Source: a virus (taxonomy: Duplodnaviria > Heunggongvirae > Uroviricota > Caudoviricetes). Taken from it: a DNA stretch of 21,924 nt. The notes under the pieces are model-generated. The model saw only the letters and a list, made by a program, of their open reading frames with translations, had not been told where the DNA came from and ran no database searches. The stretch lies in the IMG/VR virus record IMGVR_UViG_2609459833_000005, positions 1 through 21,924 of that record, one strand, 5' to 3'. The first letter of the stretch is position 1; each line of letters starts with the position of its first letter. The position numbers were made by a program, and so were the translations under genes. Below, in pieces: positions 2,829 to 9,823 of the stretch.

Positions 2829-3947
2829 TCAAATAACCAACTTAACCCATTCCTGACCTCGAGTATCGTTATAGCGATCGGTGGTAGCCTGGACTTTATG
2901 TCCCAGTAATGTTTTTGTATCGACACCCTGTGCGCGGTACAACCGTTCTGACAGGGAGCGTTGTTCATGAAATGTTGGCGGTGTTTTTCCTGCTGGTGGA
3001 ATTATTCCAGCCAGATCTCGCGCTTTGGCGAAGTAATCGCTCAGGTTGTCTTTACTCATCGGTTTTGGTTGTTTCTGGTGCCTACTATGGATTAGGTATG
3101 GACTCAACATTCTGTCCCTGCATCCATCAATAACTTCTTTTAACGATACCCCAATTTCATCGCATCGTAGCGTAAGAGGTAAGGCCAGACGCATTCCGGT
3201 TTTTCCTTGGGTTATATGTAGATGTCCATTCCATACATCTGAAAAACGCATGTGGCAAATGTCATCACGGCGCTGACCAGTAACAATCGCAAGAAGCATT
3301 GCGTTACGGATAAAGTGTTTTTCTGGCGTTGCATTATAAATTTTTTGCCAGTCTTCCAGGGTGAGTCTGGATCTGGTCACTTTAGGGATCGGTTTACGGG
3401 TAGCCTCCGGAGGATTCCATCCAGGAGGAACTTCTCCCGCATGCTGTGCTTCTTTATAAATATCAACCCATAATCCGCGATTTACTCTTGCTGTGCTGAC
3501 CATGTCTTTATCCATCCACTCGTCCAGTATTAATGCAAAGTCTCTTACCTCCAGTTCTTTCAATGGGTGGTTTCCCAGGCGGGAAACCAGGTATGCAGCC
3601 ATTCGCACTTTTTCTTTGTGGGTTGTAGCTGCAATGTCTCCATTTTTCAGTCGCGAATCCTGTATTTTCAGATATCGATCAACCCATGCCTTTAATCTGA
3701 TACCCCGACGTTTTGTTGCTGATGGACTTTCATCAATTTTGCGCATGAAATATTCTGCTTCTGCTGCAGCTATTCGCTGATTGGCTGTTGCAGCGATTTT
3801 TTCTGCCTTGACTTTGTCTGTCCCAAGTCCGTGAAATTTTCCAGTCACAGGATTTTTATACTGGTAGTAAACCTTGCCAGTTCTGCGATCAAACTTTTCG
3901 TAAAGAGCTGCTACGTCAGTACTGTTTTTTCGTGGCCTCGGTGACAT
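2829..3947 (-). CDS. int: Phage integrase, tyrosine recombinase
   Basis: 372-aa ORF adjacent to att; C-terminal catalytic-type residues (…GQRRDDICHMRF…, …LLGHKVQATTDRYNDTRG…) typical of lambda-family integrases. Confidence 0.9.
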   Translation of the reverse strand: MSPRPRKNSTDVAALYEKFDRRTGKVYYQYKNPVTGKFHGLGTDKVKAEKIAATANQRIAAAEAEYFMRKIDESPSATKRRGIRLKAWVDRYLKIQDSRLKNGDIAATTHKEKVRMAAYLVSRLGNHPLKELEVRDFALILDEWMDKDMVSTARVNRGLWVDIYKEAQHAGEVPPGWNPPEATRKPIPKVTRSRLTLEDWQKIYNATPEKHFIRNAMLLAIVTGQRRDDICHMRFSDVWNGHLHITQGKTGMRLALPLTLRCDEIGVSLKEVIDGCRDRMLSPYLIHSRHQKQPKPMSKDNLSDYFAKARDLAGIIPPAGKTPPTFHEQRSLSERLYRAQGVDTKTLLGHKVQATTDRYNDTRGQEWVKLVI

Positions 3948-4246: not shown

Positions 4247-6685
4247 TTAAAAATCAGCCTGACTCGGGATCAGTTTTTGCCAGATAACTGAAACGTATTT
4301 TGCCTGGTAACGGGCGTCATCAAGTGCATTATGGCGCTCACCTTCGAATGGAATAGCCGTTCTGGCATCGAAGTCTATGGCTTTCCCCAGCTCAACGATT
4401 GTGCGTACATCGCGATCGTTGTAGTAACGCCACGGGCAGGGGATCCCCTGCCGTTCGTATGAACGGCGCAAAATCGTGTTTTCGAAGTTGGCTCCATTTC
4501 CCCAGACCTGAACAAAAAATTCACCGGAGTTTTCGTCGATAAATTCCCGCAATTGTAACAGTGCATCATCTAACGGGATTTCATCGGTCATAATGGCAGA
4601 CTGCGCTTCACGTGATTGCTTCAGCCACCTTTTAATGACGTCACGATCAATGACTCCGCCAGCAGTTTCCAGATCGATAGTCTTACTAAATTCCGGTCCC
4701 ATATCTCCGGTTTGCGGATCGAAAAATATTGCATCTATTGAGATAATCGGGGCATCAGGATTTTTGCCCATTGTTTCAAGGTCAATCATCAGATGGTGCC
4801 ACAACCTGCTGGTGGATGTGCTTTTACGATGACCGTTCACCTTAATTAAGGGATTTGCTGTCTCGCCTATTTCATTATTGTCATTGGCATGTTGATCGCC
4901 TTCGGTGCACTCCTTGTTCGGGAGTCCGGCACTTTCTATTTCCTCTGGATCTTTTTCCCGGGCTTCATCCTGGCTTTCTTCGTTGAATGTCTCCTGGTAG
5001 GTTGCGTCACCCATCACTGCGCCACAATCAGGGCAGTTACCACCACCAGTCTGATTGCATGCGGTACAAACTTTTTCCTCTTCCTGTTGCACGACTGGTT
5101 CAGGTTGTTTCGTTTCTGGCTCGTTTTGTAACGCATTTGGGCTGTTTTGTTCCGCTTTCTGGTCGTTCTGTTCCGATTCTTGCTGGTTCTGGTTTACAGA
5201 ATCGCGGGTTTCAATCCCCTTTACCCATTTCGGATCATTCGGGTCGCTAATCCCTGCAACAAATTCTCCGCGAGAGGCAGCAAGCAACTTATCGGCGTCA
5301 GGCTGGCTGATATTGGCTGCCTGCATAATTTTGTTTACTTCGTCAGCGGTAACTTTTACCTGTGACTTGTCATCCAGCGGCTGCGGGTCCTGATGATGTT
5401 CAACTGTATCCGCTGCCATTGTTTCAGCCGTTGCCTGTTCATCTGCCATTGCGCCAGATGGTTGCGGGTTATCTTCATCATTTTTTTCTTCTTCTGTTTT
5501 GCACTCAGCAGCCAGTCCGCCGTTAATTTCTTCCAGGATATCTTTTTCCGGTGTATGCCGGGCAGCCATGAGCGTTTCAGCTGTGGGATTCTCGTGATCA
5601 GTTTCTGTCAGGTTGGCATTGATATACCCCTGAAGGCGCCCCGGGTAGTGATAAAACTCAGGGTGGGCGCTTCGGATAAGTGCAAAAATAGCTGCGCGGG
5701 AATAGTCCAGGATACCAGGGGTTGCGCGAAGTGCTGCGGACCATTCCCTGAACGGACTTTCTTTTTTCAGGACGATTTCTTTTGCGCGACGATAAACGCT
5801 GCCCGGAATTTCATAAATATTAAAATCCATCGGAAGTGTGGCTGCTGCAATCTCCACATCCAGCGCATCGAAGGTGTGTACTAAATTCGGATTGCGATCG
5901 GTTTTGTTCCCGCCACCGGCATTTGCACCGGAAGCCGTACGGGTGATACGCGAAACACGATTTCCTTTCATCCACTCTTTTGTCAGCAGACCCCGATCAG
6001 TGTAATCAGCGTCCAGGTATGCCTCGAAAAAAGCAGTTATCAGTCCCAGGTCTGAATTACCGGGATTAGGGAAAACTTTGTCAGTGTCGCGTACCAGTTT
6101 GTGAAGGTCGCGAATCTCCAGCGGGTCGAGCAGCTTTGTTTTGTGAGAAATGGCCAGGGCAGTAACAGCCGGCAGTTCTTCCGCCCGTGCTATATGTAAT
6201 GCCTGAAGTTCTTCCCGTGCAACGTGCGTTACTGGTTTTTCGCTGCTGTGTTGCGCAAGCCAGCGAATGGGCAGCTCCTGACCAGAAACCGGCAGGAGCA
6301 TATTCTCCTCAATCTCCGTCATGTCTTCGCCGTTGACGTTGGTATTGTCAGTACTGGCTGGTTTCTCCTGCACGGAGGGAGAGGGCGCGATAAATACCAT
6401 TGTAATGCCATCTTCCCCGCCTTTTTCGTATCGGTTGCAGAATTCGGTATCAAACACGCCTTCAGGTGGAAGGTCATTCACAACGGGTAAATGGACGCGA
6501 ACGGGTTTTTTAAAGTCGTCTTCATCATAATCGTTGTCATCCATTGCGGTAATGCAGCGGGAGATGGCAACAGATAATTTTTTTGCTGTAGTCCAGTAAA
6601 AACCACCTTTAATTCCCAGACGTTTTCTGACTTTGTCATTTTTTGCTTCGCAATATAGCGCAAATTCTTCTTTATCAGTGCTCAT
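4247..6685 (-). CDS. Exodeoxyribonuclease VIII-like prophage protein with C-terminal DEDDh (DnaQ-like) 3'-5' exonuclease domain
   Basis: 812-aa ORF; C-terminus has MIDLETMG (Exo I D-x-E) and [10 protein letters not shown] (Exo III with His); internal zinc ribbon [16 protein letters not shown]; long acidic low-complexity linker. Position matches the early-left recombination gene of lambdoid prophages. Confidence 0.6.
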
Positions 6686-6777: not shown

Positions 6778-6966
6778 TTATCCAGCCGGTGTTTCGTTAT
6801 TCAGGTACAGCGATACTTTTTTTACCGGGAGGCATTCACCAGAAATTTTTTGCTCGTCTCTTGCCTGGAGGCAGGATTCTTTACTGGCATAAATTCCGGT
6901 AATCACATTCTGTGATTCACCCGTTATAAGAAAAACCGTCATCATCAGTGCAAATGCTGAAGTCAT
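6778..6966 (-). CDS. Small hypothetical protein, positional analogue of Qin YdfD
   Basis: 62-aa ORF overlapping the dicB-like stop (ATGA overlap); hydrophobic N-terminus MTSAFALMMTVFLITG. Assignment by synteny only. Confidence 0.4.
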   Translation of the reverse strand: MTSAFALMMTVFLITGESQNVITGIYASKESCLQARDEQKISGECLPVKKVSLYLNNETPAG

Positions 6967-7151
6967 TGACGCTCTCCGAAAATACCAAGTTCAAGAAGAG
7001 CAATTCGGGAAAGTATGGAATTATCATTGAGCAGATAAGGCTCATATTTCCTCATATTAATGGCATCTTCAGTAAACTCCCGGTTACTGAGCAGAACACC
7101 AATATCAAAACAACCTTCAGACGTATTAACGTTTGGTAATAACGTTTCCAT
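6963..7151 (-). CDS. dicB: DicB-like cell division inhibitor (Kil-type)
   Basis: 62-aa ORF METLLPNVNTSEGCFDIGVLLSNREFTEDAIN... closely matches the remembered N-terminal half of E. coli DicB (MKTLLPNVNTSEGCFEIG...TEDAINKRK); same length. Confidence 0.7.
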   Translation of the reverse strand: METLLPNVNTSEGCFDIGVLLSNREFTEDAINMRKYEPYLLNDNSILSRIALLELGIFGERQ

Positions 7152-7329: not shown

Positions 7330-7385
7330 AAAAAGGGTGGCAGAGCAGTCACGGAGTAGAACTGATGCCACCAAATACTACACAT
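7330..7385 (-). ncRNA. dicF: DicF-like small RNA (ftsZ-targeting sRNA of Qin-type prophages) ending in an intrinsic terminator
   Basis: Minus strand reads uuugguggcaucaguucuacuccgugacugcucugccacccuuuuu: stem GGUGGCA/UGCCACC plus U-run, nearly identical to remembered DicF; sits about 180 nt upstream of dicB-like gene as in Qin. Ends approximate. Confidence 0.55.
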
Positions 7386-7685
7386 GGGTATTGTGGCGGG
7401 GCTGTCACTTAAGCGTATGGTCAACCTGACGACCCGGTGCATTTTCTGGAGCAATGGAGGAAGCCCCAGCCATACTTACCGCCGCGCCATTTCGCGGACT
7501 GCCACAACCGGAAGTGCACGGTCGAAGAAATTTAACGACAAGCTTTATATGCAAAGGAATCTCGCCGTGCGCTTTCGTGTTGTGTGCCTGCTTTTAACCA
7601 CGTCAGGCGAGGTGGTTTCCGTCATTCCCCAATAACAGGAAATCTGTATAATCTGGATATCCCCAACAACAGGAAGGTGTTTTAT

Positions 7686-7844
7686 ATGGTGGTTCAAAAG
7701 AATTGTTCAGGTACTGGTAAGCCTGCGGACAGGGCGGACATTCCGAATACCAGGAAACATATACCTGAGAAAAACATTCGACCAAAACCATCTCCAGCTC
7801 CTTCAGAGGAGAGGGGGAACAGCAACAATCAAACAAGCAGGTGA
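7686..7844 (+). CDS. Possible 52-aa hydrophilic Pro/Lys/Arg-rich small protein immediately upstream of the 2-TM gene
   Basis: ATG at 7686 preceded by SD aggaagg (7671-7677, 8-nt spacer); stop 7 nt before the next start. Low-complexity product, coding status uncertain. Confidence 0.3.
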   Translation: MVVQKNCSGTGKPADRADIPNTRKHIPEKNIRPKPSPAPSEERGNSNNQTSR

Positions 7845-7850
7845 TGATAT

Positions 7851-8297
7851 ATGGACCGGGATGATATTCTTGACAGGGTTTTATATGGTTATTTTCTTGA
7901 ACAACTATTCTCTGTAGCGACTGGTCGTCTCGATAAACTTTTCTCAGTGGTGAGTATTATCCTCGGTTCATCTGTCATTGGTGGATTTATTCCTGAAGTT
8001 TCTGGAGTTCTCATTGTTGTGATAGCAACCGTTCAAACGATTTACGGATTCGGACAAAAGTCAGGTAACGCAATGAGAAAATCCGCAGAATATCTGCAGC
8101 TTTATGATGATGCAGAAAAATATTCCGATTCGGAATTGAAAATGCAGTTAAAGCTCCTGGAAAAAACAGATGATAATATTTGGTCGTCGCTTAAAGATAT
8201 CGCAATCTTAAAAACCCAGATCAAAATAGGAATCTCCGTAGAACAACAAGAGAAACTGTCTGCAAAATCCAAATTGATGCGATTCCTTTGTGGTTAG
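7851..8297 (+). CDS. Hypothetical two-transmembrane-helix membrane protein (candidate superinfection-exclusion or abortive-infection moron)
   Basis: 148-aa ORF in AT-rich DNA; SD aggtga 7 nt upstream; two adjacent hydrophobic helices (LFSVVSIILGSSVIGGFIPEV, SGVLIVVIATVQTIYGFG) then a charged helical C-terminal domain. Opposite strand to all flanking early genes. Confidence 0.7.
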   Translation: MDRDDILDRVLYGYFLEQLFSVATGRLDKLFSVVSIILGSSVIGGFIPEVSGVLIVVIATVQTIYGFGQKSGNAMRKSAEYLQLYDDAEKYSDSELKMQLKLLEKTDDNIWSSLKDIAILKTQIKIGISVEQQEKLSAKSKLMRFLCG

Positions 8298-8395
8298 GAA
8301 TACCCAGATTGTTAAAGAGCATGCCGAATGCTTACCCGTGTCCGGCGAACGTATTCCACTTCGCCTGTGGAGAACTCTTTAATTACTAACCTTCA

Positions 8396-8635
8396 TCAGT
8401 CAGAGTTTCTTGCTAACCAGCGACGCGCGCCAGCTTCCGTTTTAAACGTTTTGCTTCTGGTATACGTCATCGCGGTAAACGTGCCGTCCAGGTTGGGGAA
8501 TACTCCACATACCAGAGATTCGTTGTTGCCAAGCTCGATAGTATCCATGCTGACCTCATTTCCCCTTAACGCCGGGGTAGCGGAACTAAAAACCTGCTGC
8601 GCTGTTATACAAAGTGTTCCCGCCGTCATGTTCAT
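8396..8635 (-). CDS. Hypothetical early protein, first ORF of the leftward operon
   Basis: 79-aa ORF directly downstream of the leftward operator/promoter region; basic C-terminus TRSKTFKTEAGARRWLARNSD. Overlapping plus-strand ORF 8328-8657 judged less protein-like. Confidence 0.45.
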   Translation of the reverse strand: MNMTAGTLCITAQQVFSSATPALRGNEVSMDTIELGNNESLVCGVFPNLDGTFTAMTYTRSKTFKTEAGARRWLARNSD

Positions 8636-8728
8636 ACGCCTCGGGCTGGCTACTTAACCCCTGACCACTGCCGGGTAACTCGAAGTATTGCCCTGCATTC
8701 TGTGGGGAGGGTGGGTGATGAATAAACA

Positions 8729-8768
8729 ATAGCACTGCTATTTTATTCTGTTAAATAGTAATGCTATT
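8729..8768 (-). promoter_or_regulatory. Leftward early promoter with two repressor operators (OL-like)
   Basis: 15-bp palindromes AATAGCACTGCTATT (8729-8743) and AATAGTAATGCTATT (8754-8768), centres 25 bp apart. On the minus strand these overlap a -35-like TTTAAC and -10-like TATTGT reading toward 8635. Confidence 0.65.
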
Positions 8769-8823: not shown

Positions 8824-9114
8824 TTAACAGCTTTTGTTTGGATACTGCCTTCGTGAGTGAACTACATTTACGATCTCGATGTTAGATGCTGTTACTCGGT
8901 AAAGTATTATGTAGTTAGGATGGGTCACTATCTCACGAAGGCCTAGAGCTCTTTCGCTTGGTGGATACAGGTAAGGGTGTTCAGTAAGTGACAAAACTGA
9001 TGTTTCAATGCGTATTTTTAGTCTACGTGCAGCGGGAGGGTTTTCCTTGGCAATATAGGCTACGATCTGACGCAAATCATCACGCGCAGAAGGTAGCCAT
9101 AAAATGGGCAGCAT
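8824..9114 (-). CDS. parE: ParE/RelE-superfamily type II toxin
   Basis: 96-aa ORF with ParE-like motifs (ARDDLRQIVAYIAKENPPAARRL, YIILYRV, IEIVNVVHSRR); start overlaps the stop of the upstream 63-aa ORF. Confidence 0.8.
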   Translation of the reverse strand: MLPILWLPSARDDLRQIVAYIAKENPPAARRLKIRIETSVLSLTEHPYLYPPSERALGLREIVTHPNYIILYRVTASNIEIVNVVHSRRQYPNKSC

Positions 9115-9305
9115 TACTCACTCCTGTTCGTCGAAGCTATTTGCGCAATAAGGTTTTCCATTTCAGCCATTACTTCGTCATGCGGAATTGCAGGACGGGG
9201 GTCTGCGAGGCTTGCTGCCACTTTGGTGCGTAACCATTCGTTATAGCTGTTTTCTTGTTCGATTGTTTCAAATTCTGAAATTATCGGGGAAAGGACTGTA
9301 CTCAT
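9114..9305 (-). CDS. Small antitoxin partner of ParE (PaaA-like, 63 aa)
   Basis: 63-aa acidic ORF with strong SD gaggagg 8 nt upstream; translationally coupled to parE. Size and context match the PaaA antitoxins of three-component PaaR-PaaA-ParE systems described in E. coli O157 prophages; family assignment from memory. Confidence 0.6.
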   Translation of the reverse strand: MSTVLSPIISEFETIEQENSYNEWLRTKVAASLADPRPAIPHDEVMAEMENLIAQIASTNRSE

Positions 9306-9322: not shown

Positions 9323-9823
9323 TTAGGCGCGAAGACCTTTTTGCGCCTCTAGCCACCGCGCAACGGTTTCTTCAATTGATTCTTTTTTCTCCTTCATTTC
9401 CTTAAGCATTTTCTCTTTGTCTTCTTTTGGGAAAGCCCTGAACGTCTGGATCAAATCTCGCTCTATAGGTTCTATATTAAACGGAAGTTCGTTTTCCGAT
9501 TGTTCCATCTCTGCGGGTAAAGCGACAACATTATCCTGCTGCAGTTCTTGGGGGTACATCCTTACAATTCGTAACAAGTCTGCCATATCTGGTCTAATTG
9601 ACTCAGGCGGAACTTGTAGCAACCCAGCGAACTTGATAACAGCCTCTAGATTTAAAGGTGTCTGACCATTTAGATAATGGCTTACTGCCCCTTGTGTCGA
9701 AAAACCCAGAATTTCTGCCGCACGCTCTTGGGTTAACCCAAGTTGAGTTTTTTTCGTCGTCCAGATTTCTTTCAGTCTCTGGGCGGCTTGCAGGTCGATC
9801 TCTGACAGGGGTTTTCTTTTCAT
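9323..9823 (-). CDS. Prophage repressor / transcriptional regulator, HTH XRE-family (PaaR- or DicA-like), no autocleavage domain
   Basis: 166-aa ORF; N-terminal HTH (LGLTQERAAEILGFSTQGAVSHYLNG); C-terminus charged and helical with no S24 peptidase Ser/Lys or Ala-Gly motifs; divergent from the cro-like gene across an operator-bearing intergenic region. Confidence 0.75.
   Translation of the reverse strand: MKRKPLSEIDLQAAQRLKEIWTTKKTQLGLTQERAAEILGFSTQGAVSHYLNGQTPLNLEAVIKFAGLLQVPPESIRPDMADLLRIVRMYPQELQQDNVVALPAEMEQSENELPFNIEPIERDLIQTFRAFPKEDKEKMLKEMKEKKESIEETVARWLEAQKGLRA

Follow-up and report, generated by a model that had tools for sequence, protein, structure and literature searches.

Introduction

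The sieB-esc-sas locus of P22, lambda and Rac was described by Ranade and Poteete (1993) and, as far as the summaries given in later papers go (PMC12197685, PMC7067206, PMC13397905), it combines the gene of a membrane protein expressed in the lysogen, antisense within the early-left operon, with an antisense RNA, sas, encoded opposite its leader. This RNA switches SieB translation when P22 superinfects, and, according to published reports, it is the superinfecting phage and not the lysogen that makes it (PMC12197685, PMC7067206). The present work deals with a locus of similar design, found in a stretch of 21,924 nucleotides of a virus of the Caudoviricetes (IMG/VR record IMGVR_UViG_2609459833_000005, positions 1 to 21,924; the whole of this stretch is hereafter called the window). 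There, a portable cassette of 734 bp (7586-8320, plus strand) comprises a leader, a micro-open reading frame (micro-ORF) for a peptide of 52 amino acids (aa), the gene of a 148-aa protein with two transmembrane (TM) helices, and a conserved 3' end. We read it, with slightly more confidence than doubt, as a sieB-type prophage cassette with a new cargo, namely an exclusion or abortive-infection module that would be expressed in the lysogen and silenced by early-left antisense transcription.

Other described systems share part of this design. SLATT proteins (SMODS and SLOG-associating 2TM) are membrane effectors of CBASS and DRT10 (PMC11381338, PMC13276650). In the Tha/Ith system of Staphylococcus aureus prophages, a defence gene lies antisense to a lytic transcript, and induction turns immunity off, thus avoiding autoimmunity (PMC11087260). 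The cassette resembles Tha/Ith in that a prophage gene is antisense to a lytic-cycle transcript, and it may be a parallel solution to prophage autoimmunity. By contrast, the inhibitor in Tha/Ith is a protein from an overlapping antisense gene, whereas that of the cassette would be a structured RNA, and the sequences and hosts of the two systems are unrelated.

A leader homologous to that of sieB

The cassette occupies the slot and the strand of sieB, antisense in the early-left operon, and shares with the sieB-esc-sas locus a homologous leader that includes a conserved element, here called element (a), a hairpin (H2) and a duplicated word of 9-10 nt, with a promoter between the repeat copies, a predicted homologous antisense RNA opposite, and a membrane-protein cargo that would likewise be expressed in the lysogen. 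It differs by a protein unrelated to SieB, by the repeated word itself (CCCCAACAAC here, CCCCTACAG in sieB), by a coupled proline-rich micro-ORF in place of an Esc-type internal start, and by a boxA-like 3' end which is absent from lambda and P22 sieB.

The leader (7586-7680) is more conserved than the proteins encoded behind it. Element (a), GCCTGCTTTTAACCACGTCAGGCGAGGTGG (7586-7615, minus strand), hardly varies, even when protein identity falls to 45%, and corresponds to the 3' structured module of a sas-type antisense RNA. Its pattern occurs once in the window, vs 0.00 occurrences expected by chance. It contains two interleaved stems, GCCUG/CAGGC and CCAC/GUGG, for which compensatory changes were found in K-12 Rac (GCCCGG/CCGGGC), in locus L004 (CUAC/GUAG) and also in Sodalis and Klebsiella, in a covariation sample that is small and partly biased by the search pattern. 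Such an arrangement is compatible with an H-type pseudoknot, which the two stems could form. In lambda, element (a) (34397-34427) stands directly upstream of sieB, in a leader of the same design with CCCCTACAG as the repeated word; indeed, element (a), the hairpin, the direct repeats and the -10 are all shared by the sieB leaders of lambda (34397-34480), K-12 Rac and P22. The role of an upstream activator site or UP element was considered for element (a) and dropped, its identity with the 3' part of sas being the better explanation.

Direct repeat X1, CCCCAATAAC (7627-7636, plus strand), corresponds on the minus strand to the loop and one arm of H2, while direct repeat X2, CCCCAACAAC (7661-7670, plus strand), falls where the mRNA is predicted to begin, immediately ahead of the first Shine-Dalgarno sequence. 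Other leader types display a different word at both repeat places, CCCCTACAG for sieB and also TTCCACAGTC. CsrA sites were dropped, as the GGA in repeat 1 is not conserved, and so was a type III toxin-antitoxin repeat array, only two partial repeats being present.

The cassette promoter (7622-7654, plus strand) has a -10 of TATAAT (7647-7652) or TAATCT (7649-7654) and a weak -35 which overlaps X1. It is supported by its homology to the annotated P22 sieB promoter: the feature "promoter, sieB RNA start site" of P22virB-3 (OQ031658.1), TGTACCCCTACAGCGAGAAATCGGATAAACT, aligns with it, and this annotation falls exactly between both repeat copies. Leader types T2, T3 and T5 have a TAnnnT -10-like hexamer in the corresponding position, and the mRNA would start near 7659. 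An earlier analysis of the window made without database searches (the sequence-only reading) had given the 148-aa gene a promoter of its own, of the extended -10 class and at 7646-7653. The promoter can be kept, on the basis of this homology; its class and coordinates cannot, since TGTATAAT actually lies at 7645-7652 and its TG abuts TATAAT without a spacer base. A generic promoter scan made no call at this sequence. Both the sas-type RNA encoded opposite 7586-7680 and the sharing of the leader by many cargos had escaped that reading. Promoters for sigma-32, sigma-24, sigma-28 and sigma-54 were dropped because of unfit spacings, and a P2 Ogr-type late promoter because TGT-N12-ACA is absent.

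Variants of the promoter region were also observed. A 9-bp duplication (AATCTGTAT) doubles the -10 region in L023. In T1 leaders (L051-L169), TATnnT directly follows element (a), so that GGTGG+TATnCT gives TGnTATnnT, which is a proper extended -10; TTTTCA stands 18 nt ahead of it, and the 3' arm of the hairpin runs into the Shine-Dalgarno sequence. In the T1 type, promoter and leader are thus arranged in another way, on the same antisense scaffold.

A predicted structured RNA opposite the leader

In the P22 sas sequence (PMC13397905, Table 2), the repeat, H2 and element (a) are all present as their reverse complements, and the minus strand of the window aligns with this sequence as well as with the lambda and Rac sieB leaders. 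According to this alignment, a putative sas-like cis-antisense RNA would cover ~7570-7680 (minus strand, approximate ends). Hairpin H2 (7616-7642, minus strand), with a stem of 10 bp, one bulge and a GGGG loop, is a structure of this strand. Its stem was found in 54 distinct sequences, with pairing kept in all of them, although H2 lies outside the search pattern. It folds better on the minus strand in every T2 (30/30), T3 (10/10) and T5 (4/4) leader and in 33 of the 43 T1 leaders. In T2 leaders, the mean folding energy after de-duplication is -9.6 kcal/mol on the minus strand vs -4.0 on the plus strand, with 41 G:U pairs vs 7, and the mean z of H2 against shuffles is -2.4. These statistics come from per-sequence folding and stem cataloguing; RNAalifold, applied to a mixed MAFFT alignment, misaligned the variable hairpin and recovered one invariant stem. 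The polarity of H2 therefore indicates that the structure is selected in an RNA antisense to the cargo.

No minus-strand sigma-70-like promoter scoring at least 8/12 was found at 7640-7800, and the antisense RNA is therefore probably cut from early-left read-through, which fits the reports that the superinfecting phage makes sas. Rfam contained no family matching 7380-8420 at E<=10.

A cis-antisense RNA opposite a membrane-protein gene is also a feature of hok/mok/sok, and the cassette may thus be seen as a type I-like toxin-antitoxin or addiction module, in which this RNA would hold a membrane toxin in check for the sake of prophage stability or host physiology and not of defence. The likeness extends to a membrane-active product, an upstream coupled frame, a structured RNA with a recognition stem-loop, and a possible 5'-3' complementarity, the inverted repeat described below recalling the fold-back pairing of hok; a hok/sok locus is moreover present elsewhere in the prophage (Rfam sok, 16033-16207). 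We nevertheless consider this explanation unlikely. The protein, with its 148 aa, is three times larger than that of hok/mok/sok and far above the size of type I toxins (hydrophobic, <60 aa), and the sigma-70-like scan of 7640-7800 revealed no minus-strand promoter for a constitutive antitoxin RNA, the antisense RNA being apparently devoid of its own promoter. Furthermore, the homologous sas reportedly comes from the superinfecting phage and not from the lysogen, many soluble cargos sit on the same chassis, the Rfam sok matches lie elsewhere in the window and not at the cassette, and the latter is embedded in a phage operon, not in a plasmid stability locus.

Two genuine genes under purifying selection

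The 148-aa ORF (7851-8297, plus strand) encodes an all-helical two-TM protein, WP_000373333.1, named "hypothetical protein" in RefSeq, whose family is phrog_6315 (6e-24). Full-length relatives of 147-148 aa, sharing 45-70% identity, occur in Salmonella, Proteus, Xenorhabdus and unassigned assemblies, and distant members (~30% identity) reach 150-186 aa. An exhaustive profile search retrieved 356 representative clusters at E<=1e-3, about 150-180 aa long; the family is spread across Enterobacterales and very common in Klebsiella and Enterobacter prophages. Omega is 0.08-0.20 for this gene, in pairs with unsaturated dS. The micro-ORF (7686-7844, plus strand) encodes a hydrophilic, proline-rich peptide of 52 aa with a conserved motif, DIPxxRKHIPEKNIRPxPxP. 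Its reading frame is kept in E. coli, Salmonella, Proteus and Xenorhabdus, with indels that are multiples of 3 and an omega of 0.14-0.68 (unsaturated dS), and it had no match in Pfam, PHROG, NCBIfam or PADLOC. Both ORFs are genuine genes, conserved and under purifying selection.

Several features ascribed to this pair by the sequence-only reading were recovered. The 148-aa ORF had been described as AT-rich relative to its flanks, and GC content indeed drops to 0.36-0.42 across 7800-8300 vs ~0.50 in the flanks. It had been placed opposite to early-left genes all on the minus strand, as was confirmed for the DUF1391 ORF, DicF, dicB, the DUF1482/ydfD-like gene and exo. Good ribosome-binding sites had been noted, and are present as AGGAAGGTG (7671-7679) ahead of the first ATG and CAGGTGA (7838-7844) ahead of the second, the latter site overlapping the stop codon of the small ORF, which lies 6 nt before the second ATG. 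The 52-aa ORF, then a possible first member of a two-gene unit, turned out to form a conserved pair with the larger one.

If both ORFs were spurious, only the non-coding elements (antisense RNA, boxA-like site) would matter, as one might suppose from the higher conservation of element (a) compared with the proteins. This possibility is effectively refuted by the conservation pattern: the length of 148 aa is kept at 45% identity, with the low omega and the 356 clusters mentioned above, the frame and motif of the micro-ORF are kept, and the structure model is confident.

Related micro-ORFs are found both upstream and downstream of the membrane gene in distant cassettes (Klebsiella, Sodalis and others). 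In L140, L144, L106 and L176-L179, a second proline-rich micro-ORF follows or overlaps the 3' end of the membrane gene, e.g., MDNILTHQDRHDHLPVKPRPPVPPGK; its motif resembles the upstream one, and its PRPP-type core recalls proline-rich peptides. These micro-ORFs of 25-52 aa may gate the membrane protein or sense translation.

Boundaries and distribution of the cassette

The cassette is bounded and mobile. Phage Tritos, which is free of the insert, matches the window up to ~7595 and resumes from 8322, with ~30 bp in place of the insert; the inserted nature of the unit, previously proposed with such a comparison as its check, is thus supported. From comparison with other loci, the cassette extends from GCCTG (7586) on the left to the end of TTGTTAAAGAGC (8320) on the right. 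The backbones include Qin/dicB-type, Rac/KilR-type, P2/186-like (cox) and other lambdoid prophages, with further sites in Proteus lambdoid prophages, directly after N, in Klebsiella and Sodalis lambdoids, and in Xenorhabdus, within the structural region of a myovirus-like prophage. In at least 12 contexts and at least six backbones of Enterobacterales, the cassette is antisense to both neighbours, and Rac-type phages carry sieB in the same slot and on the same strand. Among 5426 complete E. coli genomes, only 71 contain the region in full. In L006, element (a) is present again directly after the cassette (3745-3775), and in the upstream flank of L123 the 3' motif GATTGTTAAAGAGC is immediately adjacent to element (a) of the following unit; tandem cassettes are therefore possible.

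Relationship of the 148-aa protein with SLATT and SieB

Hydrophobic helices were located at ~residues 29-47 and 49-68, around an invariant Pro48, and are followed by a charged helical tail. Y12, E17, R26 and D28 are further conserved residues. An AlphaFold2 model computed from a 72-sequence alignment (pLDDT 81.8, pTM 0.70) places helices at 3-44, 48-65, 67-86, 93-105, 112-126 and 138-147, in agreement with the hydropathy profile; an earlier model, computed from seven sequences, was too poor for use (pLDDT 57.6). In the model, a long N-terminal helix runs into TM1 and is followed by a tight turn at Pro48, TM2 and four cytoplasmic helices. The topology of two adjacent TM helices with a charged helical tail, earlier deduced from the translation, is thus borne out by hydropathy and modelling. 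An N-in, C-in hairpin is predicted, in keeping with hydropathy and with the positive charge behind TM2.

A pair of neighbouring TM helices with further helices on its N- and C-terminal sides, as present in both the model and the hydropathy profile, is also the layout of SLATT proteins of type I CBASS (PF18186) and DRT10. Sub-threshold NCBIfam matches to SLATT_4, SLATT_5 and TIGR04402 recur over one shared region of the family, and three of its members bear the SLATT name in UniRef. In a Foldseek search of BFVD, at least 10 of the top 23 matches were annotated as SLATT, with a probability of 0.72-1.0 (mostly >=0.95), a TM-score normalised to the query mostly of 0.5-0.65, and E>=0.037 for all. 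These signals, together with the presumed phage-conflict setting, are weakly consistent with a SLATT-like character. The cassette protein differs from known SLATT proteins in remaining below profile significance, in being a standalone protein of ~150 aa paired only with micro-ORFs, and in the absence of an encoded cyclase, SLOG, reverse transcriptase (RT) or other sensor partner.

Homology to SieB was rejected. No Pfam match was obtained, BLASTP against the Rac-type SieB gave E=16, and an hhalign comparison of the family profile (72 sequences) with a SieB alignment gave a probability of 0.5%; for comparison, a genuine SieB cargo scores 2.5e-22 with PF14163. The description of the product as "SieB-like" therefore does not apply to the protein. 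It is right for position and regulation, because the gene sits in the sieB slot and strand and shares with sieB a homologous 5' control region.

Proposed mode of action

From a mechanistic point of view, the sieB-type promoter (~7622-7654) would produce, in the lysogen, a short-leader mRNA for the 52-aa peptide and the 148-aa inner-membrane protein, the translation of the latter being presumably coupled to that of the proline-rich peptide. The membrane protein, physiologically like SieB, would then abort or exclude superinfecting phages by compromising the membrane. Upon induction, or upon entry of a phage with the same cassette, the early-left promoter would fire and antisense transcription would cross the cassette, yielding a structured sas-type RNA (~7680 to 7570, minus strand). 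This RNA would comprise a single-stranded repeat copy at its 5' end, H2 with the same word in its loop, and a double-stem module at its 3' end. It may pair with the mRNA leader and the ribosome-binding site and thereby shut the module off, so that the phage would spare its own lytic cycle. A logic of this kind, ON in the lysogen and OFF in the lytic cycle, is plausible in view of the homologies described above; we infer the expression and processing of the antisense RNA, its regulation of the cassette, the action at the membrane and the anti-phage phenotype.

Several results weigh against this interpretation. No SLATT profile reaches its curated cut-off, SLATT_4 being the best (E=0.008, 15 bits vs a cut-off of 55) before SLATT_5 (E=0.066), and the Pfam SLATT models give zero matches. 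Fold matches with E<=0.001 are absent from the BFVD and PDB Foldseek searches, and the PDB matches are generic helical hairpins. Typical SLATT systems carry a nucleotide-sensor partner; none that would generate or sense nucleotides (SMODS, SLOG, RT) is encoded nearby, the neighbours being ordinary phage early genes in all contexts. PADLOC gives no defence-system match and, more generally, searches of Pfam, PADLOC and solved-structure sequences with both ORFs returned nothing. As regards an Esc-type truncated in-frame product, the family alignment has no conserved internal Met, and the SieB/Esc switch is therefore not copied literally. In one E. coli lineage (L009, L033-L035, L041, L042, L045), a deletion between CAAGCAGGTG repeats has removed most of the micro-ORF. 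Finally, many non-membrane cargos occur on the same leader, and the platform alone therefore does not imply defence.

The protein could also act at an earlier step. T4 Imm blocks DNA injection by incoming phages, as does P22 SieA. The latter, an inner-membrane injection blocker, offers a precedent (PMC10883804) for superinfection exclusion in which the two-TM protein, perhaps together with the proline-rich peptide, would block DNA entry without killing the cell. A small inner-membrane protein from a prophage moron, with no sensor or partner enzyme encoded nearby, would suit such a role. However, an antisense shut-off is best understood if the product is harmful to lytic growth of the phage itself, which an entry blocker would not be, and the weak signals from fold and profile searches favour SLATT-type effectors, not SieA or Imm; we therefore regard entry blocking as a minor possibility.

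Should the reading as a silenced exclusion or abortive-infection module be correct, a hypothetical family of 356 clusters would gain a testable role, acting as a SLATT-like effector, standalone but with peptide partners, in exclusion or abortive infection. To our knowledge, an antisense-RNA leader of the sas kind has been described for P22 sieB alone. This curiosity of a single phage, dating from 1993, would then become a general rule for the safe carriage of self-harming defence genes in temperate phages, parallel to the Tha/Ith logic in Staphylococcus.

A leader shared by many cargos

At least 120 viral contigs contain the element (a) pattern, and the sequences downstream of it fall into 116 distinct contexts among the matches listed. 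More than 100 different cargo genes stand behind the leader, including SieB (PF14163, 2.5e-22), the two-gene unit described here and its distant relatives. Cargo families without a Pfam match comprise proteins of 144-148 aa, coiled-coil and zinc-ribbon proteins of 137-185 aa, zinc ribbons of 65-76 aa and small membrane proteins. In 1315 of the 5426 complete E. coli genomes, the T2 leader covers at least 80% of a 116-nt query, and no annotated feature lies under it among the matches listed in these genomes.

These observations raise the possibility, which we rate somewhat below an even chance, that the sas leader is a general portable expression chassis for more than 100 small prophage genes, ON in the lysogen and OFF in the lytic cycle with self-immunity, and that the cargo of the window represents a new standalone SLATT-like class. 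The specificity of each chassis would come from the duplicated 9-10-nt word, displayed in the loop of the antisense hairpin. Element (a) and the hairpin would then be a sequence tag for the 5' edge of lysogen-expressed accessory genes, usable to mine prophages for new defence or conversion genes, and could support an Rfam family, none existing at present.

The same chassis would also suit a moron of lysogenic conversion without any part in phage conflict, its cargo contributing to envelope, stress or colonisation fitness and being merely provided with lysogen-specific expression. Most platform cargos are indeed without known function, PADLOC finds no match, and the cargo is present in only 71/5426 E. 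coli genomes. On the other side, the sole characterised cargo of the platform is the exclusion gene sieB, the cassette sits in the sieB slot, and the SLATT-like signals also point to phage conflict. A role outside this conflict appears accordingly quite improbable to us.

The conserved 3' end

The cassette ends with GGAATACCCAGATTGTTAAAGAGC (8297-8320), the left part of which is an inverted repeat of 7650-7662. On the minus strand, GCTCTTTAACAA (8309-8320) matches 12/12 positions of the rrn boxA consensus, GCUCUUUAACAA, and occurs nowhere else in the window as an exact match. The 3' end CCAGATTGTTAAAGAGC recurs in T2 cassettes whose cargos differ. The boxA-like site might shield the phage transcript from Rho across ~700 nt of untranslated antisense; in other loci, however, the motif abuts a plus-strand terminator. 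An inverted repeat of 13-15 nt joins the -10/start region (7650-7662) and the 3' end (8297-8310). It consists of AATCTGGATATCC(CC) at the -10/start region and GG(GG)ATATCCAGATT just after the stop codon; degenerate in the window, it is near-perfect in Sodalis and conserved across T2 hosts and cargos (loci L179 and L176).

Genomic setting of the cassette

The minus-strand genes of the early-left operon are the DUF1391 ORF (8396-8635), dicB (6963-7151), the DUF1482/ydfD-like gene (6778-6966) and exo (4247-6685). The small RNA (sRNA) DicF (7335-7386, minus strand; Rfam RF00039, 62 bits vs a gathering score of 48) lies downstream in the early-left transcript. A promoter-like site (8726-8754, minus strand), between operator-like palindromes, is the predicted source of the antisense transcription. 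It directly follows a terminator-like hairpin (8809-8792, minus strand), and a RelE/ParE-RelB toxin-antitoxin pair (8824-9305, minus strand) lies between it and a cI-like repressor (9323-9823). In the rightward part of the prophage, the Rfam sok antitoxin RNA (16033-16207) is on the plus strand, and hokD is annotated in the matching genome; three tRNA genes and STnc100 are found further right (Rfam; 20463-20711, 21543-21748, plus strand).

In the closest genome (NZ_CM129862.1, E. coli; L001, 7065-8411), an IS4 stands between exo and the DUF1482 gene, whereas the window is without IS4. Ahead of DicF on the minus strand lies a conserved segment of ~200 nt (7388-7592). In P2-like prophages (L004, 6536-6699; L007, 4051-4255), a segment of this type lies on the other side of the cassette and is followed by a terminator-ended stretch that Rfam does not recognise as DicF. 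An origin of the cassette by circular permutation or integration was dropped, since the placement of 7388-7592 reflects a differing insertion point relative to the sRNA slot. The slot equivalent to that of DicF is occupied in K-12 Rac by the sRNA KilS (NC_000913, 1418405-1418502), and an sRNA slot with exchangeable sRNAs thus appears to adjoin the cassette slot. Finally, matches to the C4 antisense RNA and isrK were observed beside Phage_ASH/ant-type genes (L004, 5008-5095; L005, 5044-5232 and 140-338; L007, 2514-2601), C4/isrK being a further antisense-RNA-controlled module in the early regions of related prophages.

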